A stretch of DNA of 64,000 nucleotides from Octopus vulgaris (Eukaryota). The notes under the pieces were generated by a model that was not told where the DNA came from, did not search any database, and worked only from the letters and a program-made list of their open reading frames with translations. The translations under genes were made by a program, and so were the position numbers. Location: contig OX597832.1 in the NCBI GenBank assembly GCA_951406725.2, forward strand, positions 6,634,001-6,698,000, written 5' to 3'. Shown piece after piece: positions 19,029-64,000 of the stretch (the stretch's first letter is position 1; every line of letters begins with the position of its first letter).

Positions 19029-19037
19029 TGAGGGCTG

Positions 19038-25796: not shown

Positions 25797-26160
25797 AGCA
25801 CCATCCAAACGTGGTTGATACCAGGTCCGCCTGACTGGCTTCTGTGCCAGTGGCACGTAAAAAGCACCAACCGATCGTGGCCGATGCCAGTACCTCTGAC
25901 TGGCTCTTGTGTCAGTGGCATGTAAAAAGCATCATCCTAACATGATTGATACTAGGTCCACCTAACTGGCTCCTGTGCCAGTGGCACGTAAAAAGCACCC
26001 ACTACACTCTCGGTGTGGTTGGAGTTAGGAAGGACATCCAGCTCTAGGAACATTGCCAGATCAGAATGGAACCTGGTGCAGCTGCTGGCTCTCCAGATCT
26101 CAGTCAAGCCGCCCAACCCATGCCAGCATGGAAAGCGGGTGATGATGCTGATGATGATGA
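25797..26160 (+). mobile_element. RTE 3' end with three ~63-bp repeat units and a (GAT)n tail
   Basis: Three gtgccagtggcacgtaaaaagcacc-type units followed by the same tail as 20752-20910. Confidence 0.85.
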
Positions 26161-37507: not shown

Positions 37508-37671
37508 TTCGTGATGGAGACACAGTCAAGCATTATAGAATTCGGCAACTTGATGAAGGAGGTTTCTTCATTGCACGAAGAGTCACATTTCGTACACTGT
37601 CAGAATTGGTGGAACACTACAGCCGGGATGCTGACGGCTTGTGTGTTAATCTCAGAAAGCCTTGTACACAA
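37508..37671 (+). CDS. Src42A: Src42A/FRK-like tyrosine kinase exon: SH2 C-terminal half
   Basis: ttcctttcag| acceptor and caa|gtatgt donor; encodes (V)RDGDTVKHYRIRQLDEGGFFIARRVTFRTLSELVEHYSRDADGLCVNLRKPCTQ; phase 1-0. Confidence 0.96.
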
Positions 37672-37823: not shown

Positions 37824-37992
37824 ATTGAGAAACCTGTCACAATGGGTCTTTCCCATAATACTACAGACCAATGGGAAATTGCTAAGCATTCTCTAAAACT
37901 TATCAAAAAAATTGGTCATGGTCAGTTTGGCGAAGTATGGGAAGGTTTGTGGAACAACACAACTTCAGTAGCTATCAAAACATTAAAACCTG
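37824..37992 (+). CDS. Src42A: Src42A/FRK-like exon: SH2-kinase linker and kinase subdomains I-II
   Basis: ttttcag| and ctg|gtaagt; encodes [19 protein letters not shown]...[27 protein letters not shown]; phase 0-1. Confidence 0.97.
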
Positions 37993-39624: not shown

Positions 39625-40121
39625 TATCTGATATGATTGTTGATAGTGAAATAGATCCAGCAACTCTCTTGAAGAAATTCTAATAGTTTTTCATGATACT
39701 TTAAGCTTTTTAGGCTTTTTATAACACTGCAAGTCTTATGTAAATACCTACTATTTAACAAATTCATAGTGCTTTTATTTAATAACTGGACAAATAACAA
39801 TCTTAATTATCTAACCTGATGATTATTAGTTTTAATTTATAAAAGTGTAGTTTATTATAATGGATTTTTATTCTTTTTAAATAAAGATTCCTTCAGCTGT
39901 GTCTCATTAATAGCATTATACCAGAATAGGTTAACAGTATCAATTTAATTTTAGTTACCACCTTTGTTCATAGCCAAAATTGTAGTGGCTAATCAATTTT
40001 TGTTGTTGTTAGGTATTAGAGAATGTGTGATAGTATTCGGTCAGTGAAAAAAATATGAATGAAGCAAGTAATTAATTACACTAAATTACTTAATACATTG
40101 TGTTCTCATTTATTAATTTAG

Positions 40122-40280
40122 GGACAATGGATCCCAAAGACTTCTTACAAGAAGCTCAAATAATGAAGAAACTTCGACACAGCAAATTAATCCAATTGTA
40201 TGCTGTATGTACCCAGGATGAACCAATCTACATTGTAACTGAACTTATGAGAAATGGTAGTTTACTGGACTACTTACAAG
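40122..40280 (+). CDS. Src42A: Src42A/FRK-like exon: kinase subdomains III-V
   Basis: ttaatttag| and aag|gtaatt; encodes (G)[52 protein letters not shown](G); 159 nt, phase 1-1. Confidence 0.97.
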
Positions 40281-42545
40281 GTAATTCTTGCACATTGTTA
40301 TTAATATTTCCCAGAGGATTAAGTATATTTTGTATACACAATACATATATACACACTCAACTTCTGCACATTAATATTAGGTACAGCATATCCACACATG
40401 AGAAACCTTCCTCAAACATATATATGCAAACATGGTGAAATGCAAACATTTTTTTGAAAATTACAAAGGGATTTGTGACCAAGCAACAGCAGATAAGAAT
40501 TTATTCTTTCTAACTATTCATAGTGTACTCCTTGTTACTATGGCCAAGTTTGAAGGACATGGTCCTGTGCTGGAAGTTTTCTTTTTTTTTTTTATCTTGT
40601 TGATCAGGTTTTATTTGACCCATAAAAAGATTTGATTATCTCTATTGCAAATGCACACTGATCAGTAACACTTATAGCTTGAAAAACTCCTCCATCAGTG
40701 ATGAATTGACATCAGCTGAAGTGCCTTATCTTATTTATTCCAGCTTCTTGCATTCTGAGTTCAGTTCCCATTGAATTTCCAAGTCTATCTTTCAGCCTTT
40801 CATAAATAAAATGCTATTCTAAGGTAATGGAACAGCAAAATCATTAAAAGTATCAAGCAGGAAGTCTTTTAGTATTTGTTAGGGCTCTTTACATTCTGAG
40901 TTCAAATCCTAGTGTGGCCTATTTGAGTGCTACACTTAATCCATTATCCAGTTTAGCACCATTGCCTGGCCCACAGTTAACTTTACTTGATTCCACTCTG
41001 TTTGTCGCAAGTTTTCAGACACTACAAATATTCTTGAGTGCTACACAGTCTAGCCTTAACTTTTGTATCTATTGTCATGTGACTTGTTTCATTTCATAGA
41101 ATTATGATCATTTGAACCAAGCTATATGTTTTGCTTATCAATTACTTTTTTCCTGATTTAAAAACTTGGACATTTAACTCGAATCTACAAAGTTCAATTT
41201 TTCTACTGGTGTACTCAGATTTTCTCTTCAAAATGAGTACACAAGGAATTGATCAAGTAAAGTTAGCTGCAGTAGTATCTGTGTATAGTTTATTGAACAG
41301 ATTATTAACAGATATGATATAATTCTATTCAAATATAGTAAAATATATAACAGGTTTGAGGAATGTAACCCACTTCAATATTCGAAATGTTTATGCCTAA
41401 ATTCCATATTTGAACTTTGTATATTAATTTGCATATTTAATTAGATATTGAGCTGATTTTTTTGTTCTGAAAGATAGGGCAACACAAGTAACTATCATAC
41501 TGAGTTTGACCATTGAACTGCTCAGAACTTTTTTTCGTTTTCAAAAGGAATTACATGACTCTTAGGGAGAGGGTATGACAGTAGATCATAAAATTTCATT
41601 TATGCATACCAAGTGAATTTAGTCACTTTTTTTTACCATCTCTGGTTATGGATGAAATTTTTACTGTACACTACATTTCCAAATGTCTATTAAACAAATA
41701 CACAATAAGTTGCATATCTGATTTGTTTATAAACTGAAAATGAGTAGAAAAGGTGATACTCAGTGCATGTTTCCATCAATTTATGTCCCAAATTTGAGGT
41801 TTAAAATTACAAAAAATGCCAGATTGTATTTATTTACAATAAATCTAGAATTGGTGTTCAAAGTATACAAATTTTGACTGAATGAAACATATTACCAAAT
41901 TTTTGAAATGTGACCAGTTTTCTACATGTCCTACGTATCTGAGATTTTGTTCTACTATATATATATCTCGATATCTATCTATATACACACACACACACAC
42001 ACAAAAATTTTACTTTATGCAGAACTCAAAATATAACTTTGTACCTAACATAATACTAGATATGCAACAAATATATGTACATAAGCACAACCATTTCATT
42101 TTTCTATACTGATTATATAATACACTATATTTTGATGTCCTTAATCTCCATGCGTCATTCATCCCCATCTTTCTTTTTTTTTTACATAAAAATACTGGTT
42201 TATTTTTTCCTTTTGATTACGATTTGTTATGATGCAATTTTTAAAATATAGCAAAATTTTATTGAAAGAAATTTATTTACATCTAATTGTTAATAAAATA
42301 ATTTGGGGAAATTGTCTCTCAGTCTAATTAGCAACCAGCAGGATTTCTATGATAATTCAGATATTAATTATTATTATTATATTATTACTGATAGTGAATG
42401 TAAAATCAGAAAGTTTGGACTAGTTCATGCATTAACTATTTTATGTTATTCATGTCAGTGGATTCAGTTTGTTGTTTCAACAAAGCTGATAGAATGCTGA
42501 TACTTCACAGTTTGAAGAAATTATTATTATTATTATTATTATTAT

Positions 42546-42870
42546 TGGTGGCGAGCCAGCAGCATTTCATCCATCTTTACATTCTGAATTCAAATTCTGC
42601 TGAGGTGAACTTTGCTTTTCATCCTTTCGGGGATCAAGCCAGCATCCAGTACCCTCTGTAAAATAGTTGACATCAGAGAGGGCATCCAGCTTTAGAAGTC
42701 AAACCAAAACAGATTATGGAATCTGATGCAGCTCTTGGCCTTGCCAGCTCCTGTCAAGCCATCCAACTCATTCCAGCTTCGAGAACGGACATTAAATGAT
42801 GATGATGATGATGATTGAACACTGAGATCAATGTAATCAACTATCACCTCCACCAAAATTATCATTATTA
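42546..42870 (+). mobile_element. SINE family N interrupted by an RTE tail (about 42645-42815)
   Basis: Family N core ctttgcttttcatcctttcgggg, then gagggcatccagc...(GAT)n, then gaacactgagatcaatgtaatc resumes the SINE. Confidence 0.7.
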
Positions 42871-42969
42871 AAGAATCTCTTCTTTGATCTTTTTTTTTTT
42901 TTTAATCTGAATCCTTGCCCATTTAGGTTTAGTAGATCTCTGTCTAAAATTTTACACCTTCAAGATAAT

Positions 42970-43250
42970 CTTCAAAAGCATGTTGGAACATCACCAAAGA
43001 GAATATGATAAAAAGTACAGGAACTGAAACAGCCCTGTTTAGTTCCAGTGGAAACGGAAAATGCCTTTGACTGCTAGATATCACTGTTGCCATCCTTCCT
43101 TCATGCTAAGATACTATTACCCTTATTGTTTTATCAAGCAGACCAACTTTTGGCAAAATTTTCCAAAGCCCTTCATGATTCACTGTATCAAACGTCTTGG
43201 TCAAGTCAATGAAGACCATATAACAGTCAGTATTTTGCTCACACAGGTCA
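42970..43250 (-). pseudogene. RTE-BovB-like RT fragment
   Basis: CEQNTDCYMVFIDLTKTFDTVNHEGLWKILPKVG resembles the RTE motif FIDLxKAFDTVxREGLWKIL. Confidence 0.85.
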
Positions 43251-45365
43251 TCTAGATCATATAAAAAGTTCAGATGTCTAAATTCCATTATGAAGTCATA
43301 GGCAAGATTTCTGAGGATTTTTTTCTTTGTTAATTTTGCAACACTTGATTGAGGCTTTTTTTTTTATATTCTACATTGTTAAAAATGTTTTGAGCATTCC
43401 GTCATATTAACTCTCATAGTCATTTGATATTTATATTTTCTCTTTAAACAAAAACAAATACATTTTGCTTCATTTTTAAGCAACAAATTTAATAGAAACA
43501 TTTATTTGAACTTTAATTTTGACATAGCTTTGATTTGAATTCCAGGCTTCCTATGTATATACTCATTCTTTGTTGCACCTGCCTCCATCATGTTTTTGCC
43601 TAATAAGAGAAGTTTTCATTTCACTAAATAGGAAATAAAGAACTCATTACCAGGATTGGCAAGACAGAATTTTCTCCTTAAGTTCTAGTAACAACTGCTA
43701 CTAATTAAATCACATATTTACTGGAGAAACTACTAAATAACCAAACCTCTCAGTCCTATAGAGCACTGTTGGATATCAATCTGATGTCACATAACTAGCT
43801 CTCCAGTTTACTATCACTGAAAAATGTTATCACAGCATAAATTGTTGATAACATATTATATAATGAGAAGCGAAACAAATATTATTCCATGTTTTCAGTT
43901 AATACTTAGCAGCAGAGAGAATAAAGTATCAACCTTTGAAATGTGGCACTGTGAGCTTGTATTATATCAGTGGTATTGGGCTAAGCTATAGATAAATCAG
44001 TTAAGCAAAAATAAAGAAATGACTTCTATTATTTTTTATTCTACCTATTAGGAAATTATCTTTTATTCCCATTTCATAATCGATTGCATAATGACATAAA
44101 ATGCGTCATTTGTAAAAGGTGTCAAAAGTTCATGCAGATATCCAAAATTGCTGATCTATCTCAAATGGAAAATATCTAGATAAAAGCATTTTATATCAGT
44201 CTTCAATTTTGGTTTAGACTTTCTGAAGAGAAAAAAGCTATGCTTGTGGTTTTGTTAGATTATCCTAGACTGAAGATATAAATAAAACCCAACCAATTCA
44301 AATTCAATTTGAATTTTTGTCAGGTTAATGATTGAGATACATAGATATGTAAGTTCTAGGACTAGAGACTGAGGGCTCTACATTAGATTACTTCATATAA
44401 AGAAACTAAATATTTATTAATCCAGACCAGTGAATGACAATATTTGTGGTATAGTTCCACATCAAAGTAACAGTTCTCTTTAATAGTGCTTGTCTTCAGT
44501 TGTTGATAAGAACAAACAATTTGGGATGTTAACATTTAAAATTTGAGTCATTTTTCAAATTGATTTCATTATATACACTTGCGATACACCAATCATTAAG
44601 TGATTTTAAGTGTACAAATAAACTAGAATTTTAACTCTAAACAGAGAGAATAACTTCTCACTAATTTCCTTGCATCACAAATTGGAAACAGTTTACTTTG
44701 GACATGTATCAAGTACTTTAGTTACTTCATAAATTAATTGAATATGCTAAAGTTTTATTTATTCATGTAAACATGTAACATATCTGCATATCCATAGACG
44801 TTTTTGTTCACTCCCATTGTGCTTCACTTCTCCCTCATCTCCCCAAATTCTCTTTCTTTCTCTCTCAATGATGTATCTTATTTCGATATCAGTGTATCAT
44901 TTTCGCTTTGCTTTTCAGCTAAAATGATTTATAACTGCAAAATCAGATATATTAATTAATATTTGAAACTAATTTCAAATATTGTTCTTTGTTGAACTTA
45001 TATCTTTACTATATTTATTTTTTCATCATCAAAATATTTCCAATATTTCAGGTTCAAGATTTCTTTCACTGAAAGATTTTATTAAAAATTTAAATATCCC
45101 TTATCATTCATTTAAAAAAAAGCCTTTTTTTAAAAAATTATTTTTCAAGTTCTATCCAATAAACTTAAACTGATGACTTATTTCTCATTTTTTCACAAAC
45201 AGTCTATGAGACATATAAACACATATTATTTATGCCATTTTATTTCTTTTGTTTTGTAAAGTGTGGACAAGCCTTTTTAACTACATTCTCTTTTCTTTTT
45301 TTTTATTTTCTTTTAATTCTCTAATCACCCTGATTAATGACGTATGATGATGGTTACTCACCTAG

Positions 45366-45374
45366 TGTCGGCAG
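45366..45374 (+). CDS. Candidate 9-nt microexon of the kinase gene (adds VSA)
   Basis: cctag|TGTCGGCAG|gtaagt; no AG between 45272 and 45363; upstream ttttaac plus a long pyrimidine tract; in frame at phase 1. Confidence 0.5.
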
Positions 45375-48300
45375 GTAAGTGACTGTAGAGGTGTGATAAC
45401 ACTAAAAAGTACTTAGCGCAGAAGACCAGAATAAGATTCCTGCTTATGCTATGAAAATCTACTACACTATAAGGTTTTCTCATTAAGTTTTGCATTGGAA
45501 TTTCATTCTTTCATGCACACACTACATTACTTACACGATCTGTAGACATTGCACTGCATTATATGAACAACAAACTCTTTATGAATTCTATTACCTCATC
45601 CAAATTACATTATCTTTATCTATGACATTATATAGCAAATATACATTGCAAAACATTTATAAATTATATTAGAATATTCCTATATTTTGTTGCACTATAT
45701 TGTCGACATACATGATCTACATGCATCAAATTACATATCATATAAGCTGGTAGAAATAAGCCTCTTAATAGAAAACAAGATGACATGCTATTGAATATCA
45801 ATTTTAGTAACATCTTGATTGACTATACATGTATATATTTTATAAATGTATACATTTTATAAATGTGTATTGAGAATCTGTATGATTCAATTGATAAATA
45901 CATCTTACAGATTTGAAATCTTATGCTTATGTGAAAATTTCTTTGAAACTATTTACTTTATTAAAATAGCTTTTCAGAATAAAATTATTAACATTTAGAT
46001 ACAAAGAAACAGGAAAAAAGAGAGATAAAGAAAAAAAAAAAGAAAAGGGTGAGGTATAGCAGCAGTAGATAGGAGGGGGAAATTGGCCACATACCCCAGA
46101 ACAAATTGTGTACTCAGTTGTACCCGTGACAGCATTGCCTTGGAGAATAGCCAGCAACACTCACTGCAGCAGCCACTTCCGGCTCACAGAGCTCATTACT
46201 CCAACAGACTGTCATTATCCCTATTTGGTGGAGGAAGTCTGTAGTACAGGGTCCTCGAACATCTGACGTCTGGACAGCAACTGGCTCAGTCTGATAGCGG
46301 CTGGTCAAGCCCTTATATTTATTGATCAAAATTATCATTGTAAATAATACCATACTGATGCTTATCAATCAGTTATTCAAATCTTGCAAAGAACAGCATA
46401 GTATAATTCCAATTTTGAGCTGAGATTTAGATGTTCATCCTACCAAGGGAAACTTTCTAATGAATGCCAGTATACATTATATGTATTCTCATTTTAGATA
46501 TATTTCTATGTATGCTTGTCAGGCTAAAAACAGAAGAACCACAATATGACACATAGCTTTACCTTTTTTCAAGATTAATCTTTAAAAAAAAGGAACTTTA
46601 ATGTCTCATCATCCTGGAATTTTTGTTAAAAACTTACCTAAATTTTAGTTCCTACATTGACTTTCAATTACATACTGATAAATAAAACAAATATACAACT
46701 TAAATAGTGCAATTACCCTCATATGTACATGCAACTACAAACAGATAAAGCAAAGAAAACATGCAAACACCCGTAATCATGACTATACAGATTAGACCAA
46801 CAAAGCAAACATCTATACTAATGCAAAGAAAAAAAGAAATGCCTAACCTCATATACATACTTATCACACTAACAGTAGTTTAAATGATTGTGCTTGTCAG
46901 CAATCACTAGTAGAGCTTTGAAACTCTAGTATAATGAGGTGTGTTTGTGTTGTGATAAACAACTAACTCTCAATCTCTCTCTCTCTCTCTCTTATCCAGC
47001 AGACAAACATTCAGCACGTTTTTTTGCTTATCTTCTCTTGCCAAACACATCTCAATCTTTCTCTACTGCTCTCCTCATCATTATCATCATCATAATTATC
47101 ATTACCAGCAGCTGTATTAGTACCATCTACATTGCTTCTTTGATTATTAGATTAATTAAAACTAATACACTCCTCATAACTTTTGCCTTTGTGATAAGAT
47201 TGCTGCCAAACAAGTTTCTTTTCACATATTCTGAGAGTTGATCTTAAGTTCTTATTAGACTTGAAACTCACTGAAATCTAGTTTGGCACAAAAACTGGTA
47301 TAGTGTAGCGGGTCCTCTTCATTTTACTGACTACAATTACAGACTATTAGTAGTTAAGGTAAACAAATAACAATGTTGACAATATGGTTATTGCTTGCTA
47401 TTGTTAACATTGCTCTTTAGTTCCTTGTTAGTTTGCTGAAAATGAGCATATATTGATGCTGTCATAACCATAATTACAATTACTCTTTATCATTATAATC
47501 ATCTTCAATATTACAGTTAGTGCTATCTTCAACAGAACGTCACTCTCTTTAATGTCATTACCACTACCATCATCATCATCATCGTTATCATTACTACTAT
47601 TGCTACTGCATATTTCTGACACTTTATTTTATTCTGCTGTATTTTTTCCTCCCTTTTTAATTCTATTTCCAGTTTTTCCTTGTTTTGGTTCTTTTGTCCA
47701 GCTTTCTTTTTTTGGTGATGGAATATTTTGATGAAAAAAAAAATTTTTACTTTAAAAGCCTTTATTAATCTAAACTGAATATTTGAAAAGATACTCCAAA
47801 CAAAATATTGCTCATTAATCAAGCATTTAAATGATTGTCTCCTTAGGTTTGTAGCTATAGAAAAAGAATTTAGTTTAATGATTTCATATTTTTAAAAAGT
47901 GTTGCATCATCCACTATACTTTTTCTTTTCCTTTTAAATATTTGGAAATGTAGTGATGAGTTTCTGATTATATTAAAACTCAGGTGCTATATTGTTAATT
48001 AATTCTCATGTTTTTCTACAGATATATAGGCAATCAATTGTAGTTAATAGTATTTATGTTATAGTATTGTCTATTTAGTTGTTGAAAAAAGATTAAAGAG
48101 AGAGTGCACAGGACTGGAAAGTTCCCATGTCAGCATTGAAAATGATCAGCTGAAATACTTGGGCACTTGTGTAAGAACTTCCCAATTCTATCACCATTCG
48201 TATCAGGTCCCAAAGGGTGCATTTTTTACCAGTGAGATGAGGTGGGGGTTTGAACTCCAAGTGTAGAAAGCTAGAACAGTTACATAATTGTTCCATACAA

Positions 48301-49419
48301 ACATGTTGTTTGTATGAAGAATGTTAGTCATTTATAATTTGATCATATTCTTCAAAATCCTTTAGACTAACTGAGAATACTGTCATGGTAACTATTCTAG
48401 TGTAGCAGATAAGTAACTTAAGGGGGAAATTCATAAACTCGTGCCATAGGTGTAAACATTAATAATACCCAGTAACTAAGACACCCACATTGCTTATATT
48501 AAAATTCCTAAGTATTTATAAATTAGATATAAAACTTCTTCATGCTGTCATTCCACGTTTTTCTCTTCCCACTTTCAAAGTCTGTGGTTAGAATATTTAT
48601 ATTTGAATCAGATACAAATTTTTATTTCCCTCTCCTCTGATTTTACCCATGCAAAAACCACTAATATAGTACTTGTTCTTTAAAATAGGAAAATTATAAC
48701 ATTTCCATTTAGTTTAGATTCCATAGAAGGCTCATTTTTAATCATCTTTCCAAGATCACTGGATGTTATGGAGCAACATTAAAATAGCTTCGCACGTGCA
48801 TGAAGTGTTCTGTGATGTGGTAACTGCTTCTTGGTTGATGAACAGAAATTATTAACCAGGCATTCTGTGAATATTCCAAAAAACTTTCATTTTTCAGACC
48901 TTGTCATATACAATATGGTTTCTATTTTCAAAAAGGATATCTTGATTTTAGTCTGTATTTCTGGCCTGATTTTTATCTTTCTTTTTTTCTTTTCTTTTTC
49001 AATTAATCAATTATTTTAGTAACTTATTTATTTCAGTCACTATACCTTTAAATAATTGCCATCAAGAAAAATTAATATTTATTTAATAAAGTTAATTAAT
49101 TTAAAATATAATTTTGAAAAAATAAAAGAAAGATTTTCTAATATCTTTAACTTTTAAAAGTTAAGCTTCTAGTAAGCCTTATAATTTCAATACATTCTTT
49201 TATATAACTTGAACACCATCATGAAAACCTTAGGTTAATAAACTCCTCTGCAATTAATACAACTAATTATTACTGGTATCATTAATTGGGTTTATAACTG
49301 GGAGAACTGATATCAATATTAGTAGTGAGAATTGGCAATTGTTTCAGTTAATTGACTAACTAAAAATTAAATGTAAACTAATTACCTACCAGTACTAGGA
49401 TATACCAACTTTACTATTT

Positions 49420-49760
49420 TTTTTACTGCTTTTAGTTATTAGGCTGCAGCTTAATAGGACACTAGTTTTTAGTCAATTGCATTGTCCTAGACCCTCTGCC
49501 AGCAAATAGTCTGGTACTTATTTTATTGACCCCTTGTGAAGAGAAAAGTCCGTTATGTTTGCATGGAAGATAACTCAGTTGATCATGAATACTACAATGT
49601 GTTCCTATTCAATGCACTGTTTTTGTTCCCTTCATGTTGGGGCTTCTGCACAGTTTCCACTTAACAAATTCCATTTATAAAATATTGGTGAAACTGAGGC
49701 TATGGTAGAAGTCACTTACCCAAGGTGCTGTGTAGTGGAATCAAACCCAGAGCCATGCTG
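49420..49760 (-). mobile_element. Degenerate SINE family C
   Basis: gggcttctgcacagtttcc...ggctatggtagaagtcacttacccaaggtgc is the reverse complement of the family C head. Confidence 0.65.
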
Positions 49761-49935
49761 CTGCTCATTTAGTAACCCATCTCATATTCTTAATAGTGTG
49801 TTGTTTAGTTACTATTACAGTGCATAATTACCCCAAGTTTTGTCTTCAGTTACCTACAAGTAACAAAGTAACAACAAATAAGAAAAACTTTCAATTCAGT
49901 TGAAATGTCTCCTTCTCTCTCTGTAAATACCATTG

Positions 49936-50330
49936 TCATTTAACATCTGCTTTCCATGCTGGTATGGGTTAGAATGGCTTGACTGGAACTGGTAAGCTGA
50001 AGAGCTATACCAGGTTCTAGTCTGAATTTGGTTTGGTTTCTATGGCTGGATGCCCTTCCTAACACCAACCACTCTGAGAGTGTAGTGAGTACCTTTTACG
50101 TGTTGCCTGCAATGCCCACAACTACGATTTCACTTGGCTTGACAAGTCTTCTCTAGCACAGCAAATCAACAAAGGTCATGATCACTTGTCATCACCTCTG
50201 TGAGGCCCTACATTCGGAGATCATGCTTCATCACCACGTCCCATGTCTTGTTGGGTCTACCTCTTCCACAGGTTCCCTCCACAGTTAGAGATCAGCACTT
50301 CTGTATGCAGCTCTCCTTGTCCATCTCTCT
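49936..50330 (-). mobile_element. RTE 3' end (ORF end plus tail)
   Basis: Minus strand encodes EGTCGRGRPNKTWDVVMKHDLR, followed by the tail gtggttggtgttaggaagggcatccagcc. Confidence 0.9.
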
Positions 50331-50373
50331 GTAAATATATATATATAATGTGTGTGTGTGTGTGTTTCTGTAG

Positions 50374-50431
<58 letters not shown>

Positions 50432-50539
50432 ATCACATGACCGACCAGACCATCAGATGTTGTTACACATCGCTGGTCACAATGTGTTCGCATTGTTTTA
50501 GCCTTCGAATGACGCCACCCCGCTGGCTAAGTGAGCAGG

Positions 50540-50585
<46 letters not shown>

Positions 50586-50983
50586 TTATTTTGGTTTCAC
50601 TTGTAGATACACAGAATTATAATTTCACTTACTTAAGATTAACACCTCAGTCATTTCTACTACTTTATTATCATTAAAATATAAAAAAATACTAATGCCA
50701 GTATTATCATAAAAAAGGGGATGTAGTTAACTTTTTGCTACACAGACATGCCAGCATGCCTTCAAAAGATATTAGTATTAAATCCATTTGAAATTACTAG
50801 AGTTTCTTTTTTTGTCTTTTGTTCTTTTTTTTTTTTGCTGCTTTTTTTCCAGTGATGATTCAAACATCTCACAATGGTCAAATTTGGGGAGTTATTAAAT
50901 AATGGTTTTCTTTTTTTTTTTTTAATCTTAATTTTTACTTTATTTTTATCTTTTGTCCTGCTTTTTGCATATTTAATTGTTAG

Positions 50984-51004
50984 TTAACATTGCAGTTTAT
51001 GATG
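50984..51004 (+). CDS. Candidate 9-nt (50996-51004, VYD) or 21-nt (VNIAVYD) microexon
   Basis: ttgcag|TTTATGATG|gtaagt, with an alternative in-frame acceptor gttag| at 50983. Upstream T-rich tract contains TGC motifs. Confidence 0.5.
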
Positions 51005-51844
51005 GTAAGTGTGCTATTTTGTATTCGTTGAGAACTAATCTAAACTTCAACAAGTTGTTAATTATTATTGTTAAATGCAGTTTGAACCAAAACAAAATGA
51101 TGACTTGTTATTGTTTTGCTTCACTTTTTTCACTGGCTTTTTTTTGAAAGTTTTTCACTTGTTGGAAATGAAGATGTTGTAACATAAGTTTTTGCTATTC
51201 ATGTTTTCATTAACTTTGTTTTCCTCCATCAATATTGAAAAGCTTGGAACTGGTTTACTAACTTTTAACTTTTGTTTATCTCTCTTAGTATGAAACACTG
51301 CTAGAATATTGTTTTAAAATGTTTGCTTACTCATGTACTAATATTATTATATTCACATTTCTAAATTGATAAAATGTTTGTGCTTATTACCTCCTATTTA
51401 ATTGTACTTATATAGCAACTGTTATTATCTTCCTGGTAATTATAGGATGGGTTAGATAGGTTTAACAACTTGTCAATTATATGGAGTGGTGACATATTAA
51501 AAAACAGCATTCTTTTGTAGTCAAACGGGTATTAACTATATATTAATCCTCAAATTAGATTTTGGGATTTGTTTATGCCAATTGCCTAACAATAAAAGCA
51601 TTAACTTCCTCTGGGGCCTTATTTAATACATCAGAACTTATGACGTGAAAAGAGTGTTTTTCATTTGTTTTTCTGCTACTAAAACATTTTGCAAATAAAG
51701 GGAGTCAATTTTCTCAATTTCTCAACGTAACATTTTCTTTCGTAAAACTGAACAACCTTCTTGATTTCATCTTAAATGTAAGCTTCCCTTTTGTAATAAT
51801 GTTTAGTTGTTTCACATTGTTTAAAGAATAAATCACAGACATTG

Positions 51845-52225
51845 GCATGGTTATGTGCTAAGAAGTTTTGCTTCCCAGCCACATGGTTCCAGGTTCAGCA
51901 CCACTGCATGGTAACTTGCAAGTGTCTTCTATAGCCCTAGCCAAGTGTCTTCTATAACCCTAGGCCAACCAGAGCCTTCTGGGTGGATTTGGTAGATGGA
52001 AACTGTTGTGTATGTGTTTATATATGTGTGTGTTTGTGTTTTTCCCCTCACTCCACCACTTGACAACAGGTGCTTGCTTGTTTATGTCCCTGTAACTTAG
52101 TGGTTCAGCAAAAGATATTAATAGAATAGGTAACAAAAATAATAAGTACTGGGGTCAATTTGTTCCAATAAACCCTTCAAGGCAGAGCTCCAGTATGGCC
52201 ACAGACCAATGACTGAAACAAATAA
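51845..52225 (+). mobile_element. SINE family C, near full length
   Basis: Aligns along its length with 57867-58322; small internal duplication of caagtgtcttctata. Confidence 0.85.
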
Positions 52226-53241
52226 CTGGAAGCCATAAGCAATTGCATATTGATCCACAACACCTATGTAAGGTACAAAAACAAAATTAAAATAAATTAG
52301 TCAATACTAATTGTATAAGCCTTGTATTTATAATATACACACAGTCAACTCATTGGGGATTTAGAGCATCAGTATAATCTGCATGTAGTATCCTCAGGAT
52401 ATGTCAACATGACAGAACTCATGCTACTAAATCAGTAATGTTAGTGCTGATGATCTCACAATGAAAATAGCAGTTATTGAATAATTTTACAGTGAAAATC
52501 TCTTTCAGTTGCAGTCTTTTGCATCCTCTGCTCTCCAGTTTGCTATGACTAAAGGTTTTGTTTTTTTTAATGTTAAGGTTAAATATTTATTCCCTGCACC
52601 AGAATGTTACATAGAATCAATTGCTTAACCTTTTCCAATCAGACATATCGTTCACATCTCAGCGCATTGATTTATGGAGAGGAGAGAAATATTGTGATAC
52701 ACATGCCTCCTTTCCTTAGAGCATTAATTGCACAAGTGAAGAGAAATAGCTTACAGGTGGGAATCAAGAGCCAAGTCACAAAAGCCCTATCTCTGTTTTG
52801 CTGAAGCTACTAACTTATTAAAAGGCAAACCCTGATACCGGATAAAGAACACAGTAGTAATAAGAAAATCAATAAATAAGGCTGCTTTATTTCTTCTTCC
52901 CTCCTTTCTTCAAAAAATTCAGAGAGTTTCAAGAATCTAGTTCTTAATGCTGATTCTACTTTGATCCTTTATGTACTGGTTCCTATATTTGGTCCATCTT
53001 TCAATTACTTCTCAAAGAGAAACATTACTGTTGAGAAATATAAGGTATGTTTTCTAAATAGTTTATACTGGGTTTGCTGTTTCCATTAACTCTCTTCATG
53101 CAACACTATTGAAGTATCAAGTTCTTGCTAATAAAAGAGTGTTGGAAATGGTTCTATATATCCTAAAGTGCAAAATTGCAACTCATTATTTTTTTTATAT
53201 TCTCTATAAGACATACACTCACAGACCCTCTCCCCCTCGTT

Positions 53242-53272
<31 letters not shown>

Positions 53273-53836
53273 GAAAAAAACTCAATATATATAATATTTT
53301 TTGCTTTTTATTATACACACACACTGTTTTAATGATGCTAATGTGGGAGGTTGATTCTATTGATGTAATGCAGTGAACATTGTACCCAAGTCCCACCAAG
53401 GAGATATGGGTTCAACTCCCACCAGCTTTCACATTTTTACTTTATCATGTTTGAACTCTTTGTAACTGCATATTTCATTTTAAAACTCAAACACATATAT
53501 ATATATACATACACATATATATATATATATATATATGTGTGTGTAATTTTACTTCTCTCTGTCTCTCTCACACACATGCGCGCACGCACTCACACACACA
53601 CACACACATTTTCTCTCACACGCACAACACACAGATGTACATACTTTTCTCTCTCATGAACAGTGAAAAATGTGTTATTCGACTGAATATGAGATCAGAG
53701 AATATGTTAATTTCCATAATGAGCCTGGTGAGTCAGCCACATCCTGTATGTATGTGAAAGCTTGATGTAAATCTCTTTCTTTGTTATTATTCATCCCCTC
53801 CTATAAAATGATGCAGTGCCTTTTAGCTTTCATTAC

Positions 53837-53888
<52 letters not shown>

Positions 53889-56419
53889 TAGCTCTCATTA
53901 CTTCTCTCTCTCTCTCTCTCTCCTTCGTGTTATGTTTTTAAATCTATATATTGAAGGCTCCCTTTCCTTTTTATTTATTTGTTAGGCCTCAGTACACGAT
54001 GTAAGCTAGTTGTTATAACACCTACCACATAACAAAACGGACTTAAAACATGGCAGTTACTCTCTTGCCCAAACACCCTGGATGTTACACACACACATAC
54101 ACATCATGCATTTGTGTGTGTGTGTGTGTGTGTATGTATATATCTGCATACATGCATATGCACACACACACACATACACTAATACACATATATATGGTAC
54201 ACTGAAATTCATTCCTGAACATATATAAATACTTGCACCTTTATCATTTCCAAATAAAAAGTGTGAGTGTGTATTCTAAACAATTGAAAAGTTCCTAGTC
54301 ATTTGTTCAAAAAGGTAAAAGTAAAAAGCAATAAGGTGTTGAGAAATCATTGGAGTTCAAGGTGTCTAGTACTTGGTTTATGTCAACTCAAGGCAATTGG
54401 AAAACATACCCACTTTATTCTGATGAAGTGTTCAACATAAACTGTTAATTTACATTTTACACACACACACACATACACACATACACACACTATCTGGATA
54501 ATTAACTATTAACTCTTTGAGAACATCTGTGGTTGAATAAGTGAAGCAGCTGTGGTTGAATAAGCCATCTGACATATTTGTTTTGGGACCAAGTGAGAAA
54601 TGAAACACTTCCATTTCTGTTGTAGATGGGTGAAATACATACAACCATGAAGAAATGTATCTAATATTAATGAAATTCCTCCCATCAAACTCTTATTTGG
54701 GAAAATTCCTCTCTTTAAGTATTTCTGAATCACTTTTATCTCAAATATAATGAAGAGAAAATATTTGCTTCACCTGTTGAGTGGGATTTTCAAATTTCCC
54801 TTAAATTCCTTGTCCTAAAAATTGTTGCAAGTTTGGGTGGTGGGGGTTCAGTTTTTTTGAGTTTTTTTTTTTTTTTTTTAAAGCAACAGATCACCACACG
54901 ATGGTCCACATAATGAAGGCTAGAATGTTTTTTTTATAAGGAAGTTCAATCTAATCCAACCCAATATGCAAGGTTATCCTATATTGGGAAAACTGGGTGT
55001 GGAGTTTGATTCTGAATAATATGATACCAAAAAGAGGATCTTTTGGTTCTTACTTCCTATTTACTATCATATTTTTAGTCATTGTTTAACCCAAGTCAGT
55101 CTTAACTGAATAGATCCAAGACCAAAAGCATTCAGTGACAACTATCACAATTTTTGTATATACAAGAAGAAATTGTTCAATGTTTTCTTCAGTTTTTAAG
55201 ACAGTAAGATATGATTTGAGGAGAATCTGGCTAATATTTTTTGCACATCAAGCAATAGTTGAGAGGATCCCTTATTAATTTTGGCCTTATACCTAGTTTT
55301 TCAGCATAAAAATGTCTTCAATTTCTGCTCTAAACCTGAACTCACTGGCTTTTCTTGTCTTCTTTGTAAATTAAAAAATAGTTCTTATCACTTTTATCAG
55401 TGTTACCCCTAAAGGTGTTCATTTTACTGTTTCCTAGACCCAAGTCACTATTTTGTTCTTCTTTGTTCACGTTAGTTCTCTTCCTGTTCACGTGAAGGTT
55501 TATTAGTGTTTATCATTTTATAGTAATTAAAGTAATCATGAGCCCAATATGTCTGAAAATGATTATTAATAAACACTCCAATACATATATTACATTCTAT
55601 TGAAGACAGATTGTTCACAAAATAATAGGAAAAAGAGTGTCAGAGTAACTAGCTTTAAAAAAATGCCTATGGGCTGTTTCATTTCACAAACCCACTAAAC
55701 AAATAGTGCAATCATTTTTTTTTTAAACAATAGTATTTATACTTAATGCTCTGTCTTGTGACCTCATCATTAAAATTTGCCAAAATTTACTGTTAATCAC
55801 TTTTAAACAAAAATTTGTCCTCCATTATGATTTCATAGTCTTTTTTTTTCTTTCTCTTTTTTTTCTGTTAGTCAGTGATGTAATAGTTTTACATTTTCAT
55901 TCAAATCTATCTGAAATCTTTGATTAATTTTCTGAAAATTTTCACCTTACAATGCAACAATCTGATAATTTATTCTGATTCTCCAGTTTGATAACCTATC
56001 AGTACAATATCTCTATTTCTCTCTTTACTTGATGCCAAGTCTTTCTGTTAAATATATCATCTATGTTCTGTGTCAAGTTTAAATTTGTACTGAAGCTGTC
56101 CAATGCTACACCACTCTACAATAATCATAAAATTTTACAATAAACATTTCTATAAAAGAGTGTCTCTTCCAAGTTGACCATTATCACGTTCCCTAGATAC
56201 AGAGCACTTCAGATGTTTTGATGTTCGTGAACCTAATCAATGCAAATCTAAACAACTTCACCAAGTTTGCCTTTATACATGATGCAAGTTTTGATGATAT
56301 TAGTCGGAATCGGTGAAAATAAGAAGCTAGATTCAAAAATCGATTATGAATTTAGTTTACTAGGAACTGAACTATACTCTATAGATCTATATGCCCGTTT
56401 TATTTAGTCCTCAGTCATG

Positions 56420-57510
56420 ACCTCCAGTAGTGCTTACAACTATCTTGGTCTTCCATGCATCTTACTAGCTGTCCAGTTTAATATATCCCCGTATGTTGGT
56501 GTAGAACACCTCTACTGTTATGCCCATATGGTGGCTTCCATATTACCGGCTGGCTGGCTAAGATCGTCTGGTGTCTCCAGCAACAATAAGCCAACCTCAT
56601 TCTTATGACTGCTATTTTCTCACTCATCCTTTGTAACCCCTACAGATGATTGTTGCTAACATTTTCATTCAGTTTACTGTTAACTACTGCTTGCCACATC
56701 CTGATATAGCATCCGTTCAGAGACTTCTGCAGGGTAATCATCAAGGTCCAGCAATCACAGATTCTACAATTGCACTGAAGCTAAACTTGATATGGCCATG
56801 TCATTCAGAGCCTTTCATGCTTTTACCTTCCTTGCTTTGATGGGGTTTTTTGGTCTGATGAATTGGCCCGTGATCTCAGGTATTTGAATTCTGACTTACT
56901 GCAAAGCAGTGCCTCTTGTTGGATGGTCTGGGAGAATATTGTTGACAATGACCTTGTTTTCATGTCATTTAACCCTTTAATATTTAAACCAGCCATATCC
57001 AGCCAAATATTCTACCTCTTTTATGTTCAAACTGACTAGATCCAACATCTTACACCTACCCTACATAGTCATTCGAAAGATAAACAATCACGTCGTCACA
57101 ATCTCAAAGTTATGAGATAATGCATGATTAATTCAAAACATTGTGAATAAACAAGCATTACATTTGACAGAATAATCTGAATGCTAAAGGGTTAACCGAA
57201 CACCAGTGTTGGCACACTCTTTCTCCACTCTGTTTAAGAGCTCCTCGCTTGCTATGCCTATCAGACAGCATGCTGATAGCCAGGTCCATAAAGACTATAG
57301 CAAGGAGTTGTCTAGACCCCAAAGGTATAACGATAAAGCAAAGTTCCTGTTCCAAGCCATTGTTGGCTTTACCAGGACTGCAATGAAGAGAATGTCTCTT
57401 GTAATAACCCTGCCAGAATGTTGTTGTCATCTGGGGATCACTACTTTTGTTCTTGTAGGCCACTGTAGTTGTGATATAGAGAGAAGAAAGCACATCAGAG
57501 AACCTAAGTT
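56420..57510 (-). pseudogene. Old RTE-clade RT relic interrupted by a MITE
   Basis: Minus-strand remnants ILAGLLQ (cf. AGVLQGD) and RMRLAYCCWRH..LASQ (cf. RRLRLAGHCxRH). Confidence 0.6.
56969..57195. mobile_element. piggyBac-type MITE
   Basis: TTAAccctttaa...ctaaagggTTAA; 227 bp; homologous to 6937 and 38129. Confidence 0.85.
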
Positions 57511-57866
57511 GTAGTGTGTTGCTGAAAGATAAATAAATGATCCAAAATTACTTAAAGTATCAACAAATTGTTTTTTGTTGATAACAATCAGATATATGAT
57601 GATGGTGATGATGATTGTGTGTCTATATGTGTGTTCAACTAGTTATGTGTTAAGGTGAGAACAATAACCTTTTTTAGTTATTCTTTTAACTATTCCCACT
57701 TGATTCATGATTGATACATAATATGATTAGTCATTTAAGTAAATTAAATATAGGACAAGCAAAAAAACTGATTATATGATAAACTTTGTCTTTCAACAAC
57801 AAAAACTAGATAAATTTTCCAATTGATCTTAAATTTAACATTATTTTAATATATATTATACATATA

Positions 57867-58050
57867 GGCGTAGGAGTGGCTGTGTGGTAAGTAGCTTGCT
57901 TACCAACCACATCGTTCTGGGTTCAATCCCACTGCGTGGCACCTTGGGCAAGTGTCTTCTACTATAGCCTCGGGCCGACCAAAGCCTTGTGAGTGGATTT
58001 GATAGACGGAAACTGAAAGAAGCCCGTCGTATATGTGTGTGTGTATATAT

Positions 58051-58102
<52 letters not shown>

Positions 58103-58322
58103 CGTATATGTTTGTGTGTCTGTGTTTGGCCCCCCAACATCGCTTGACAACCGATGCTGGTGTGTTTAGGTCCCCGTAACTTAGCGGTTTGGCAAAAGAG
58201 ACCAATAGAATAAGTACTAGGCTTACAAAGAATAAGTCCTGGGGTCGATTTGCTCGACTAAAAAGGTGGTGCTCCAGCACGGCCACAGTCAAATGACTGA
58301 AACAAGTAAAAGAGTAAAGAGA
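57867..58322 (+). mobile_element. Young full-length tRNA-derived SINE family C with a central (TA)n
   Basis: A box gtggctgtgtggt, B box gggttcaatccc, gcaccttgggcaagtg core, CpGs retained; many homologues in the window. Confidence 0.92.
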
Positions 58323-59299
58323 GATATATTTTTTAATATGTGTAATATATATATATATTAATGAAAGTAATTGTATTAAGATAGGTAATAGGTGGTGGTG
58401 TTCTGACCACTATATTATTGAAAGCATTAATTTGCTGCCTCTAATACTCTTGATTATACTTGGGTATAGGCATGACTCTGTTTAAGTACTCTAGTTTACA
58501 ACCATGTAGTTCTTGGTTCAGTTCTACCACACTACACTTTTGCAAGTCTCCAGGTCAACAAGTACTTTCCAAGTGGAATTTGGTAGATAGAAACTTGCAT
58601 GGCAGTTCGTCATATGTATTTAGGAATGTCTGTGTGCCTTTTGTTGATTTATATTGGCAGAGAACATAAACATCAGTGTAAAAACAAAAATGAAAAACAA
58701 TTCTTTTCCAACAAAGTCCCTTACCTTGGGTTAAACATTCTGTCAGTCTCACTGTTAGAAATACTGAAAATCAATGATCAACCTGTTGGAAGCCTATAAC
58801 CAATGATGTTAGTGTTAAAAAATCACTATATAAAATAAATAAGCTTTACTGCTATATAAACCATTGTCCTTGTTGACTTTAATGCAGACTTCAGATTACA
58901 ACCACTTAATTACAAATGATCTGTATTTTGTCTCTTTTACCAACAATGGTTCTGGCTCCCCTGGACTTCCTAATTATATTGCACCTAAACTGAAACCTAC
59001 TTCTATTCTGACTGCTTAGGAACTATACTAGACTCACTAAATCTTTCCTCCTTGGTTTTGTATTCTCTGGAATTCCTTCTCATGCTTTTATTCTCCCCCA
59101 CACACATACACACCAACCGTCAATTGTAAAAGTTCAAATTCAATATTTTACTATATCACATCCAATTCTGTTACCCTTATTCCCACAGCTCATAGGATAA
59201 GAAGATCCTTATCAAATTAACTAGAGAAAAAAATATCTTTTTTAGTATTCTAATACTGGCATTGACTCTGTGATTGGTTGGCATTCCATTGACGAGGAG

Positions 59300-59800
59300 T
59301 TCCACCTCTCATTTATTTAACACTGCAATTAATTCCCACTTAGTACGTTGTGCCAGCTCAACAGACAGTCTAGTCTCAACAGTACAAATACACACTCACT
59401 GCTCATACCAGGGAAACAGTCTTTTGTGTTATCCTTTCTAGTTATGGACAACACACCACTAAAACTATCAAAAGTCAATGCTTCAACTCTATTTGCTGAT
59501 CATCTATGAAACTTAAGACCTGCAATAGAGTATGGCTCTCACACAGCACATACGTATCCTAAACAATATTATAACAAAACCTATTCAACTGACTGGCAAC
59601 GAAACTCTCAGCAGCACATTAAAAATGTGCCCCACAGATGTGCTGTCTTCTCTGTCTTTGTTACAATAGACTGATTCTCTGAAGTAATGAGTTGCATATC
59701 ATCTCCTGCCAGGATCTCCCATTTCTTCTCTTTGTATGCTACAACAAATGGAATGGTCATGGTTGGAATACTTTTCAAAGAATGAAAAACTATCATTTAA
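59300..59800 (+). mobile_element. Possible heavily decayed LINE RT relic
   Basis: ttaagacctgcaatagagtatggctct translates as LRPAIEYGS (cf. IRPxLEYGS); boundaries are uncertain. Confidence 0.35.
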
Positions 59801-60386
59801 AAACAAATAGATCAGCACATAGGGAGAAAAATTCTGGGGAGTTAACTGTGCACAAACAAAGAGAATCTCAAGTAAATAACAAAAAGAGTCACCCCAGCAC
59901 CATAAATCTCACACACTTACAAACAAGCAACACATAGAATCAAGAACAGAAATGTACTTTCAATTGCAACAGAACACACCACTGAGCTAACTACAAAGTC
60001 TCCAGATCAGACATCATTTTCTGTCTCACAACTGCATCACAAACTATTTCTTTGGCCAACTTGCCTGTCATAACAACACACACTCGCATATCTCCGAACA
60101 AAATAGGCAAAAAAATCTGTTACAAAATTGGAAAATAAAATGGGGACATTTTTTTATCAAGAATTAGTTCAAAGAATCCAGCAATACTATAATCACGAAA
60201 GTTGACACTGCAGTACATACATTCAGCAACACCACAACCATCAACACTACCATCCTATGTTGTATAGGATTCTGCAGTAAAATACATTCAAGACCAACAC
60301 AGTCAGGAATGTAGACAGTACAGTACACCACTAAACTCAGCTGGTGTTTAAGTAATGCGTTTGTGGATAGTTGATAGGTTGGGTGT

Positions 60387-60431
60387 GGTGCTGATGAAAG
60401 AGCAATAATTCTTGAAATATGCACGTACACC
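60387..60431 (+). ncRNA. Type I hammerhead ribozyme motif (solo, third sequence family)
   Basis: ggtg-CTGATGA-aagag[caataa]ttctt-GAAA-tatgcac-GTA-cacc. Helix I is ggtg/cacc, helix II has 5 bp, and the triplet is GUA. Confidence 0.65.
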
Positions 60432-61349
60432 CATTTCCTATTTTTTTCTATCTTTGATCACATTGTTTACATAGACATATTTGTATATGAAACATTGTAA
60501 CTTGCAGTGCTGGCTCTGAATTCTATTGAAAATCTATAGAGATAAACTTAAAAATGAGTATATAAATATATATTCAATAACACTACATAGACATGTCTCA
60601 TATATGCAACGTCACAAGCACTAGCATAGACACTGCAGTAAATACATTCAACAATACAATATCAATGATAACGAAGATAATGCAGTACATATAACAACAC
60701 TACTATCAAAGTAGCTACTACCTGCTAAAAATAGCAGCCAAATCTTTCTTAAATTGTCTCCATGAAGGACATGTTGGATGATATGGTCCTTAGTCTGAAA
60801 TGTGTATTAAAAAAGTTGGGTGGTCACAGCTAGAATGCTTTTGCTCATAATTCTCTTTGATCTAGACTGACTTGAGGGCCAAACGATAATAGAAACACTG
60901 TAGTATATACATTTAATAACACCACAATCATCATCATGGGTTAAACAGTATATACATTTAACAGCATAGCTGCCAACACAGACTGCACAGTATTCAACAA
61001 CACCAAATAGATACCACAATACATTGAACAGTGCCACCATTCCCAGCACAGATATTACAGAACGTATATTCAACAACACAGCCACCAATGTAGATGCTAC
61101 ATTCAACAACCACACAATTACAAGAGTCTCAATTTATGAGAAATAGCAGCAAATCTCCCTCAAATTACACTCTACCATCTTAGAAAAGGGCATGCTGGAT
61201 AATGTGGTTCTAGGTTCCTTGCACATAGGGAAAAGAAAGGATTGTTTCAGCTGTTGTGTGCCTTTGAGTATAGGTCTGCTTGATCAGATCTGACCAGGGG
61301 CTAAACAACAATAGCATAGATACTACTACATATCTTCAATAATATCACA

Positions 61350-62240
61350 TACAAAGCAGTACTCAGAAGTAACCAAGAAATGTTCTGTGGTGGTCAAGCT
61401 TGTTGTAGTTCAGGCTTCCGTCACTAGAAGCCACCCTCAGGCGTTAGTATGCAGACCAGTGTCATCAAGTGAAGTCATACTGCCACTTGTTTTGCAGTGT
61501 TTCTCCCCTGTTCGTTGATTTTTGCAATGGGTGAAACAAAGGAACAGCTTGCTTCTATGAAATTCCATTTTCTGCTGGGGAAAATGGCAGCCGAAACAGT
61601 TGTCATGCTTCAGACAGCTTACAATGATCTTGTGCCATGAGCAAAATCCAAGTTTACAAGTGGTTTTCACACTTTAGGAATGGTCACTTGTCACTTGAAG
61701 ACCAACCTTGTTCGGAGTGTATGTCGACCTCCCGAATGAATGAAAACATCATGAAAATTCATGAACTGATCTTGGAAGGCCATCACTGAACAATTAACAA
61801 ACTTATTGATATGACATATGTACTGGAGCTCCTGCCAACGAATTTTGAGTGAGGAATTGCAAATAAAAAGAGTTGCAGCAAAATCTGTGCCTTGCTTGTT
61901 CATGGAAGATCAAAAGCAGTCATGATTGAATGCGTGTTGTGAACTGAAAGAACAGTTGGAAATTGATCTGGAACTCTTTTTGAAAGTTGTCACTGGTGAT
62001 GAAAACTGGTGCTATAGAATTTGTAGATGTGGAAGAGGTGGAGGAAAATAAAACAACAGAGGTTTTAAAAGGCATCACTTTTCCAAGAGTTCCAGCACTG
62101 CTTTGAACAGTAGAAAATGTCTGGACAATGCATTGCTTCAAATGGAGAATACTTTGAAGGTGATAAAAGTGTAAACATGTAAAACCAATTGAATAAAATA
62201 ATACTGCAAAATTCTGGTTTCTTTTGGGTACACCCTCATA
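61350..62240 (+). mobile_element. Internally deleted mariner transposon
   Basis: TA ends and degenerate TIRs; remnants LLGKMAAETVVMLQTAY, RVAAKSVP, VVTGDENWCY and CIASNGEYFEGDK; the catalytic middle is deleted. Confidence 0.88.
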
Positions 62241-63489
62241 CACACTACATTACATACATTCATGACATATACATTATATGCATCCAACACCACTGTGACC
62301 AACATAGATGCTGCATACATTCAATGCACCACAATCATTAGACAATGCAATAAATACATTCCATTAGTTGAGAGGGGATTGTATCTGATAGAAGAAAAAG
62401 TGATGAAATAATTGGACCATTGCTACTGGATTAACAAGGTTAAAAATTGGAAACAAATGAATGCACAAAGAGAAATATATAAAAGAAAAGAGTAGTTGAA
62501 TTTTCCATTATTAATTAATATTTAATATCTTTTAATATCTCTACTGCTTAGTATCCATAGATATTGTAACATTATTTATATAAACCTGTGTGTTAGCTGT
62601 AGACACTACAAACACACATTTGCATGCAATAGTTAGTAGTTTATACAACTATCACTTACATTGTACTGTGTCTCTGGTTCAAGTCCTCAGTTTCAGATAG
62701 GTACTATGAGTATGTTATTGAAGACTGCATCTTAAGTTTTACTTGTTCTACATTCCAAAACACTTGCAAATGAGAAATATCAGCCATAAAGAAAGGTATG
62801 AGCTGTGAGTTTAATGAAATGACCCACGTGGGTATTGAAATGGTTTGCTATTGCTCTTTAACATAGGTACATTAACTTGCTATACTGAATTAAAATATCC
62901 TCCTTGGTTATTCAAGTAGATTGATATTATTATTAGTACAATAGATGAGTGCCAAAGAGGTGAGTCCTCAACCAGTTGTGGATGTTGGAATTCATCTCAC
63001 TTGGTTACTGTGCTCATGGGAGCACCCATTTACTTTCAAACAGAACTGCAATTTTTGTGCCTACTTTGGAAAATTCAAGTCAAGTTTATTCTTCTTCTAG
63101 AAATGTTACATTACTTATACAATGCATCTTAGCCATTTAACTGACTAAGGTCACCCTACTATGATGCAACTGCTTTTTACTTGTTCATGCTAACTTTTCA
63201 TGTGTTTATTGATACCTCAATAGGAAAATTGAACAATTTTATCAATAAGATGTTGAAATTCTGATGATTTTTTATTGATAATTGAGGAGAGAGGGTGCAT
63301 TTCCAGTGTGTCTGTTTTCCTACTTTTCATATGTGCTTTTGTGCCACGTTTTATTATGTACATGTATACATACACATGCAGTCTTCTAACAATAAAACTA
63401 GCTAGATAATAAAGTTAAATATTTTATTTATTTCTGCAGATGTTATTTTCCTATTAGCTAGGTCTGGATGAAGGGGGTCAATGCATAAG

Positions 63490-63990
63490 GTCATCACAGG
63501 TTCTCCATGATAAAACTTATGCTGTTAATGTTCCAGTGAAACTATTGCAGGTTGATGGCTGTGAAAGAGACTTGCATGATGAGAGAATTACATGTGTGGT
63601 TGAGGTTTTGTGGTGGAAAAGCTGGGTAGGATGGATGTAACATGGGTGACAAGAGGTGAAAAGCCTAGTGAATCAAAAGTGCTTGGCTCAAGCTCGGCCA
63701 GCTCCAAGAAGCAGAAACCATTCTGTTGATTCATAGGGTGGCTTTTCTCTGGATTTCATCTGAGTTATCACTTGTGTGCAGCAGAAAACTCATCCCAGAT
63801 GCATGAATAGTTCTCCATTGTGGGTCTCACCTGAGCCTTGTAAATGACTTGTAGTTGTTGAGAGCTGAAGTATTTGTGGCTGCAAAGAGAAGGGGGTCAG
63901 TCTTTGAGATGTAGTCTAAGTCATGTTAACTATGTATAGTAGACAGATAATCAGTTGGTTGATCTTTCCAAATCACTGATATCCAACAAA
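63490..63990 (-). pseudogene. CR1/Jockey-type LINE RT C-terminal relic
   Basis: Minus strand reads YFSSQQLQVIYKAQVRPTMENYSCIWD...DEIQRKA (cf. LYKAQVRPxMEYCSHIW). Confidence 0.75.
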
Positions 63991-64000
63991 AGCATTTGCT

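Follow-up and report, generated by a model that had tools for sequence, protein, structure and literature searches.

A 9-nt microexon and a likely TG acceptor in one kinase-domain intron of octopus Src42A

Receptor kinases of the PDGFR/KIT type carry long, constitutive, tyrosine-bearing docking inserts at the position between helices alphaD and alphaE. In Src-type kinases, a microexon can put a few residues into a loop. For example, the neuronal N1-Src microexon of vertebrates inserts 5-6 amino acids (aa) into the SH3 domain of c-Src (PMC5577857), and Drosophila Src42A has an eMIC-dependent exon of 27 nucleotides (nt), DmeEX0006556 (PMC8797185, tables S2/S3). The eMIC exons are described in the latter study as having a long AG exclusion zone, an upstream pyrimidine run, CUAAY and a weak proximal 3' site. 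TG has also been reported to serve as an acceptor in alternative splicing if an AG lies within 28 nt (passages of PMC2374985). In this study, we analysed a window of 64,000 nt from the 2.8-Gb genome of Octopus vulgaris (assembly GCA_951406725.2, contig OX597832.1, forward strand; G000:C19:6634001-6698000), which holds part of a gene that is, judged by its sequence, octopus Src42A, an SH3-SH2-kinase protein of the Src42A/FRK tyrosine kinases. We believe that the intron at the alphaD-alphaE loop of this gene probably forms a two-part switch, in which a 9-nt microexon adds the residues VSA and a likely TG acceptor adds VV; it yields four annotated isoforms, with a longer alphaD, a looser loop and an intact fold in the predicted structures. 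What results is a small switch, of which one feature, the likely TG acceptor, is rare, together with one candidate, a further exon encoding VYD.

The intron and the isoforms of Src42A

The kinase exons of the window, taken together with further exons that lie as far as 130 kb upstream of it and 9 kb past its end, exactly tile the 524-aa protein P0121 in tblastn. P0121 is Src42A by its source names (Octopus vulgaris and O. sinensis), and Src42A records made up most of the named matches among those listed in the protein search. An earlier note on this DNA, made from the letters of the window, had assigned the gene to Src42A/FRK, and the tiling bears this out. The exon at 40122-40280 stops after ...GSLLDYLQ in phase 1, and the intron that follows, of phase 1 as well, measures 24,487 nt in full (40281-64767). 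The note had seen no HRDLAARN exon in 40281-64000, which was correct because that exon lies past the window edge and begins 768 nt beyond it. In an alignment with solved Src, the junction falls between helices alphaD and alphaE, and the structure models agree with this loop as the insertion site that the note had named.

Among 458 proteins that were compared, 345 span the junction, and 306 of these have no insert. The cephalopod cluster has 18 members, 15 of them listed; six of the listed proteins carry no insert, four carry VSA, four carry VV and one carries VSAVV. The RefSeq forms X1-X4 of O. sinensis are VSAVV, VSA, VV and none, respectively, and the O. bimaculoides records comprise VSA, VV and no-insert forms. 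P0121 is the sole record named O. vulgaris and belongs to the no-insert class. The splice forms therefore add 0, 2, 3 or 5 small residues, with no tyrosine in the confirmed inserts, and the combinatorial splicing expected in the earlier note is seen in database proteins. Because these isoforms already stand in RefSeq models, what is gained here is an explanation rather than a discovery. Our literature searches found no description of these octopus Src42A isoforms; the long-read annotation of PMC9699675 (data S1) may contain them, and Src is not mentioned in the main text of that paper.

The VSA microexon and the VV extension

The unit at 45366-45374 is the only AG/x/GT or AG/x/GC unit of the intron that encodes VSA. 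The VSA residues are present in P0008, P0123, P0124, P0130 and P0134, so that the exon is included in 5/15 and skipped in 10/15 of the listed cephalopod proteins, as is expected of a cassette exon in the microexon range of 3-27 nt. The match of genome and protein models confirms VSA as a real cassette microexon. Two of the VSA-bearing proteins, P0008 and P0134, come from Logan contigs and group in the tree outside Octopus and Argonauta, with 93-94% identity. They are likely spliced transcripts, because they are full-length open reading frames on contigs of 2-3 kb, and we infer that their lineage is squid or cuttlefish. The VSA forms of this lineage occur in 6 contigs versus 100 for the no-insert forms, which fits a restricted inclusion of VSA. 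In four RNA runs covering 40001-60000, intronic repeats dominated the signal, and the depth in the exon bin was only 0-0.18.

The acceptor region of the VSA exon has a 19/20 pyrimidine run at -71, CTAAT at -45 and a weak proximal tract (11/20), and its donor is strong. The cis features of eMIC exons are thus present in the form of a long AG exclusion zone, an upstream-shifted pyrimidine tract, CUAAY and a weak 3' site. For such a weak 3' site, an activator restricted to certain tissues would be needed, for which the neuronal eMIC form of Srrm234 is the likeliest candidate; we lean towards a neuronal, eMIC-driven inclusion of VSA. The genome holds an SRRM_C/eMIC-like exon that matches PF15230 above the cut-off with 32 bits (G000:C25:37317492-37317626; L036:1492-1638), which is likely part of the octopus Srrm234 gene. 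Against an eMIC target speaks the absence, within 40 nt of the VSA acceptor, of the TGC motif that such targets typically have. Since this UGC feature is missing, VSA is a putative rather than an established eMIC target.

The second real module is likely a 6-nt acceptor shift just beyond the window and none of the exons listed in the earlier note. Translation from TTGTAG, the last six bases of the intron, gives ...YLQVVGKGR, which matches the VV forms P0122, P0126, P0127 and P0129, and the VSA exon joined to TTGTAG gives ...YLQVSAVVGKGR, which matches the VSAVV form P0123. A 6-nt microexon for VV, sought in the intron as AG/TNGTNG followed by GT or GC, was not found. Four AG/N6 units followed by GT or GC resemble the intron end (at most 2 mismatches) and were rejected, as they encode VI, VQ, VL and VL. 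By chance, VV is expected at 9/257 acceptor-like sites. Since VV fits the translation and is encoded by no 6-nt exon of the intron, we are fairly confident that the TG acceptor is used in octopus Src42A. The site lies 6 nt from the canonical AG, the intron has a GT donor and both forms stand in database models, as in the TG-AG tandems described so far.

In the AlphaFold models, helix alphaD was called at H337-346 with VSAVV and at H337-342 without it. The predicted local distance difference test score (pLDDT) of the loop block was 69 with VSAVV versus 89 without, and that of the whole model was 77.9 versus 77.5. In closed Src, alphaE starts close to the face at which SH2 docks. We propose that the small, tyrosine-free inserts may tune autoinhibition (SH2 docking, closed state) or partner contacts at the C-lobe surface, and that they would create no docking or binding motif.

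Comparison with the fly and vertebrate systems shows a similar design at a different place. The octopus case would work, by analogy, like the neural microexons of flies and vertebrates. As in fly Src42A, a tiny in-frame cassette exon with similar acceptor features is found in a gene of the same family, and as in N1-Src, a microexon puts a few residues into a loop of a Src-type kinase. Fly eMIC exons have weak donors, in contrast to the strong donor of VSA, which also has no nearby TGC. The fly insert likely sits elsewhere, for in a dolichopodid fly the 9 inserted residues belong to the SH2-kinase linker (P0412 versus P0413); this pair stands in for Drosophila, of which there was no record among the matches listed in three protein searches (the best 120 of 1161, all 54, and the best 120 of 489). 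Homology of VSA to the fly microexon was rejected on this isoform pair, and because the dolichopodid insert sits in the linker, octopus probably gained its exon in parallel. While N1 enters SH3, the 2-5 aa of the octopus enter the kinase C-lobe of a Src42A/FRK protein. They share their position with the PDGFR/KIT-type inserts, from which they differ in being 2-5 small residues without tyrosine; the octopus insert is not a receptor-type phosphotyrosine insert. As for the acceptor, the human OSBPL8 TG-AG tandem has the motif CTG,TTGTAG, the same as in octopus, and TG sites 6 nt upstream of the AG are also listed for DRD2, CACNA1A, CNBP and SAP30 (Table 1 of PMC2374985). The putative octopus site shares with such tandems (GNAS, DRD2, CACNA1A, OSBPL8) the GT donor, the TG used only as an alternative and the in-frame insert, here of 2 aa. 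It differs in being a mollusc case combined with a microexon in one intron; Drosophila is the only invertebrate named for TG acceptors in those passages of PMC2374985.

These results provide a concrete cephalopod microexon in a Src-type kinase, at a site that differs from the SH3 of vertebrates and from the likely SH2-kinase linker of flies, and the octopus site is in line with the idea of hot spots at which exons of this kind have arisen again and again. Should reads bear out VV, it would be a TG acceptor outside vertebrates, shared by two octopus species. Across animals, Src42A was also seen to have three recurring hot spots of splice inserts (P0412/P0413, P0455/P0456, P0231/P0100, P0238/P0081, P0229/P0186, P0154, P0159, P0164). 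They are the SH2-kinase linker (9 aa in fly, 3 in thrips, 4 in planthopper), the alphaD-alphaE loop (cephalopod VSA/VV and a 36-aa cassette in Plutella) and the activation loop, directly ahead of the EDEY tyrosine (VE in gastropods, VN in a clam, 8 aa in a chiton).

Other candidate units and alternative explanations

The earlier note had seen in the intron a possible array of five AG/x/GT microexons (VSA, VYD, EYVNFHNEP, GLSTR and DECQR), from which a modular kinase insert with a pY-V-N site for Grb2 would be assembled. All five units exist with the lengths and peptides it gave, and the translation of VYD joined to EYVN agrees with it. Four of the five read open; GLSTR does not, because its final T yields TAA with the normal acceptor. 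Alignment to Src also supports the alphaD-alphaE position, where receptor kinases are known to carry inserts. What fails is the array as a set. Open AG/x/GTRAG units of 3n length (6-27 nt) numbered 16 on the sense strand of the intron versus 23 on the antisense strand, compared with 16.6 in neighbouring DNA, scaled to the same length, and with 10.1 +/- 3.9 in 40 block shuffles, so such units, taken as a set, are no more frequent than chance. VYD, EYVNFH, GLSTR and DECQR occur in 0/345 junction-spanning proteins, 15 of them cephalopod. EYVNFHNEP is likely a chance unit, with a GAG acceptor right after another AG, an AG-free zone of 0 and 9/20 pyrimidines, and the same holds for DECQR, with an AG-free zone of 6 and a best pyrimidine run of 14/20; the distant pyrimidine run of GLSTR is a CT repeat. 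The Grb2-docking reading is unsupported because EYVNFHNEP, GLSTR and DECQR do not rise above chance; the five-exon array is in our opinion very improbable, with VSA surviving from it as a real microexon. A repeat origin of the candidates was also rejected: the VSA and DECQR stretches have 1 match each in their own genome, and the extra matches of the VYD and EYVN/GLSTR stretches are confined to flanking simple sequence.

VYD deserves a separate judgement. A strict filter (YAG, G/GTAAGT, upstream pyrimidine run of at least 18/20) was passed by VSA and VYD only, which gives 2 donors versus 0.04-0.07 expected from 677,513 control bases, with thresholds that were chosen after the candidates had been seen. 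A looser donor, GTRAG, adds GLSTR (3 versus 0.22 expected). A related strict scan of six Src42A introns (~201 kb, leaving out the 150-nt intron 3) gave 3 hits, all in this intron, namely VSA, the 21-nt form of VYD and one 19-nt frameshifting unit. The acceptor of VYD has a 90-nt AG-free zone, an 18/20 pyrimidine run and TGC motifs, both of its lengths are in frame and the exon is single copy. VYD may therefore be a rarely included, cell-type-restricted third module that brings a phosphorylatable tyrosine. Its absence from all 15 listed cephalopod proteins tells against this, the more so as the 9-nt VSA exon was captured by the same annotation pipeline, and so does the post hoc choice of thresholds. 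We hold VYD as a real microexon, and with it a three-module switch, to be possible, as a tentative candidate. It is doubtful that the one intron acts as a three-way dial on the Src42A C-lobe, with a coleoid-conserved neuronal VSA, a cell-type-restricted VYD tyrosine exon and a rare TG acceptor for VV. If this were true, cephalopod neurons would have their own regulated Src isoforms, in parallel to N1-Src and fly Src42A, at a third structural site. The 19-nt frameshifting unit (window 49973-49991) lies in a repeat-rich, highly covered stretch and is a possible poison exon or chance.

Several points weigh against the two-part switch of VSA and VV. The VV records are from sister species, whose acceptor site may carry AG, the XP_ records are predicted models, and the TG junction is read here from protein models; many RefSeq TG introns are single-nucleotide polymorphism or alignment artefacts (passages of PMC2374985). 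An ordinary AG-AG tandem in O. sinensis and O. bimaculoides that was lost here (TG), or an alignment artefact, would leave VSA as the only active module. AG tandems far outnumber those with TG, which makes up about 0.02% of sites (same passages), the O. vulgaris record P0121 lacks an insert, and VV is in none of the non-octopod Logan proteins. This explanation, however, requires a substitution at that very base in a lineage with a protein 100% and 99.8% identical to those of the two VV-bearing species; VV is present in both of these species, in O. bimaculoides in two separate sets of accessions, and the octopus motif equals a human TG tandem listed in Table 1 of PMC2374985. We consider it rather unlikely. 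The loop itself is tolerant, and the inserts may be nearly neutral: its length varies freely across animals (+1 in 22/345 proteins; the 36-aa cassette of Plutella), human Src is one residue longer at the loop and the predicted fold is unchanged by the inserts. The helix calls at a pLDDT of ~69 are soft, and few of the 51 alignment rows carry an insert. VSA and VV could then be real and near-neutral variants of a surface loop without a regulated switch, a reading that stays because the loop varies so widely. The VSA peptide, however, is identical in Octopus and in the outside lineage, where only 47-52 of the N-terminal 75 residues match, and a 9-nt exon within a 24-kb intron requires maintained signals. 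We believe that near-neutrality is unlikely and that the switch of VSA and VV is the probable explanation. Other inserts at the loop were set aside: those of +23 and +31 in unassigned contigs read like retained introns, and those of +12 and +24 read like other or mis-modelled proteins.

Positions of the features and other observations at the locus

Table 1. Features of octopus Src42A in the window and just past its end, with candidate units of the intron
Feature	Position	Strand	Basis or remark
Src42A exon, SH2 C-terminal half (about aa 178-233)	37508..37671	+	P0121 tiling/tblastn; acceptor from flanks
Src42A exon, SH2-kinase linker to VAIK (about aa 234-290)	37824..37992	+	P0121 tiling
Constitutive exon upstream of intron, alphaC to alphaD	40122..40280	+	ends ...YLQ + G; phase-1 donor AAG/GTAATT
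Phase-1 intron, alphaD-alphaE loop	40281..64000, 767 nt more past window	+	exon mapping
3' splice region of VSA microexon	45274..45365	+	92-nt AG-free zone
Confirmed 9-nt microexon, adds VSA	45366..45374	+	donor CAG/GTAAGT; single copy (1 own-genome match)
Candidate microexon, 21 nt (VNIAVYD) or 9 nt from 50996 (VYD)	50984..51004	+	donor ATG/GTAAGT
EYVNFHNEP unit, 27 nt, rejected	53701..53727	+	GAG acceptor, in no protein
GLSTR unit, 15 nt, rejected as coding microexon	53986..54000	+	stop on joining; in no protein
DECQR unit, 15 nt, rejected	62945..62959	+	in no protein
Likely alternative TG acceptor adding VV, last 6 intron bases	L005:762-767, outside window	+	TTGTAG after CTG
Next constitutive exon (GKGR...HRDLAARN...DFG)	L005:768-946, outside window	+	start 768 nt past window

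The coding part of Src42A covers ~203 kb. A single exon holds codons 1-138 (the unique region and SH3), and the introns after it measure 110 kb and 56 kb. In intron 2, a 381-codon open stretch on the forward strand (window 19032-20174, +) matches the reverse-transcriptase family PF00078 with an E value of 1e-14 and also has a weak PHD/C1-like part; it is likely a remnant of a retrotransposon of the long interspersed nuclear element (LINE) type. A tandem repeat of ~62 nt is present at ~20300-20900, with related copies near 25850-26000. In the intron upstream of the exon at 40122, there is a broken mariner-like transposase remnant (~38560-39520, +), one piece of which matches PF01359 barely above the cut-off.

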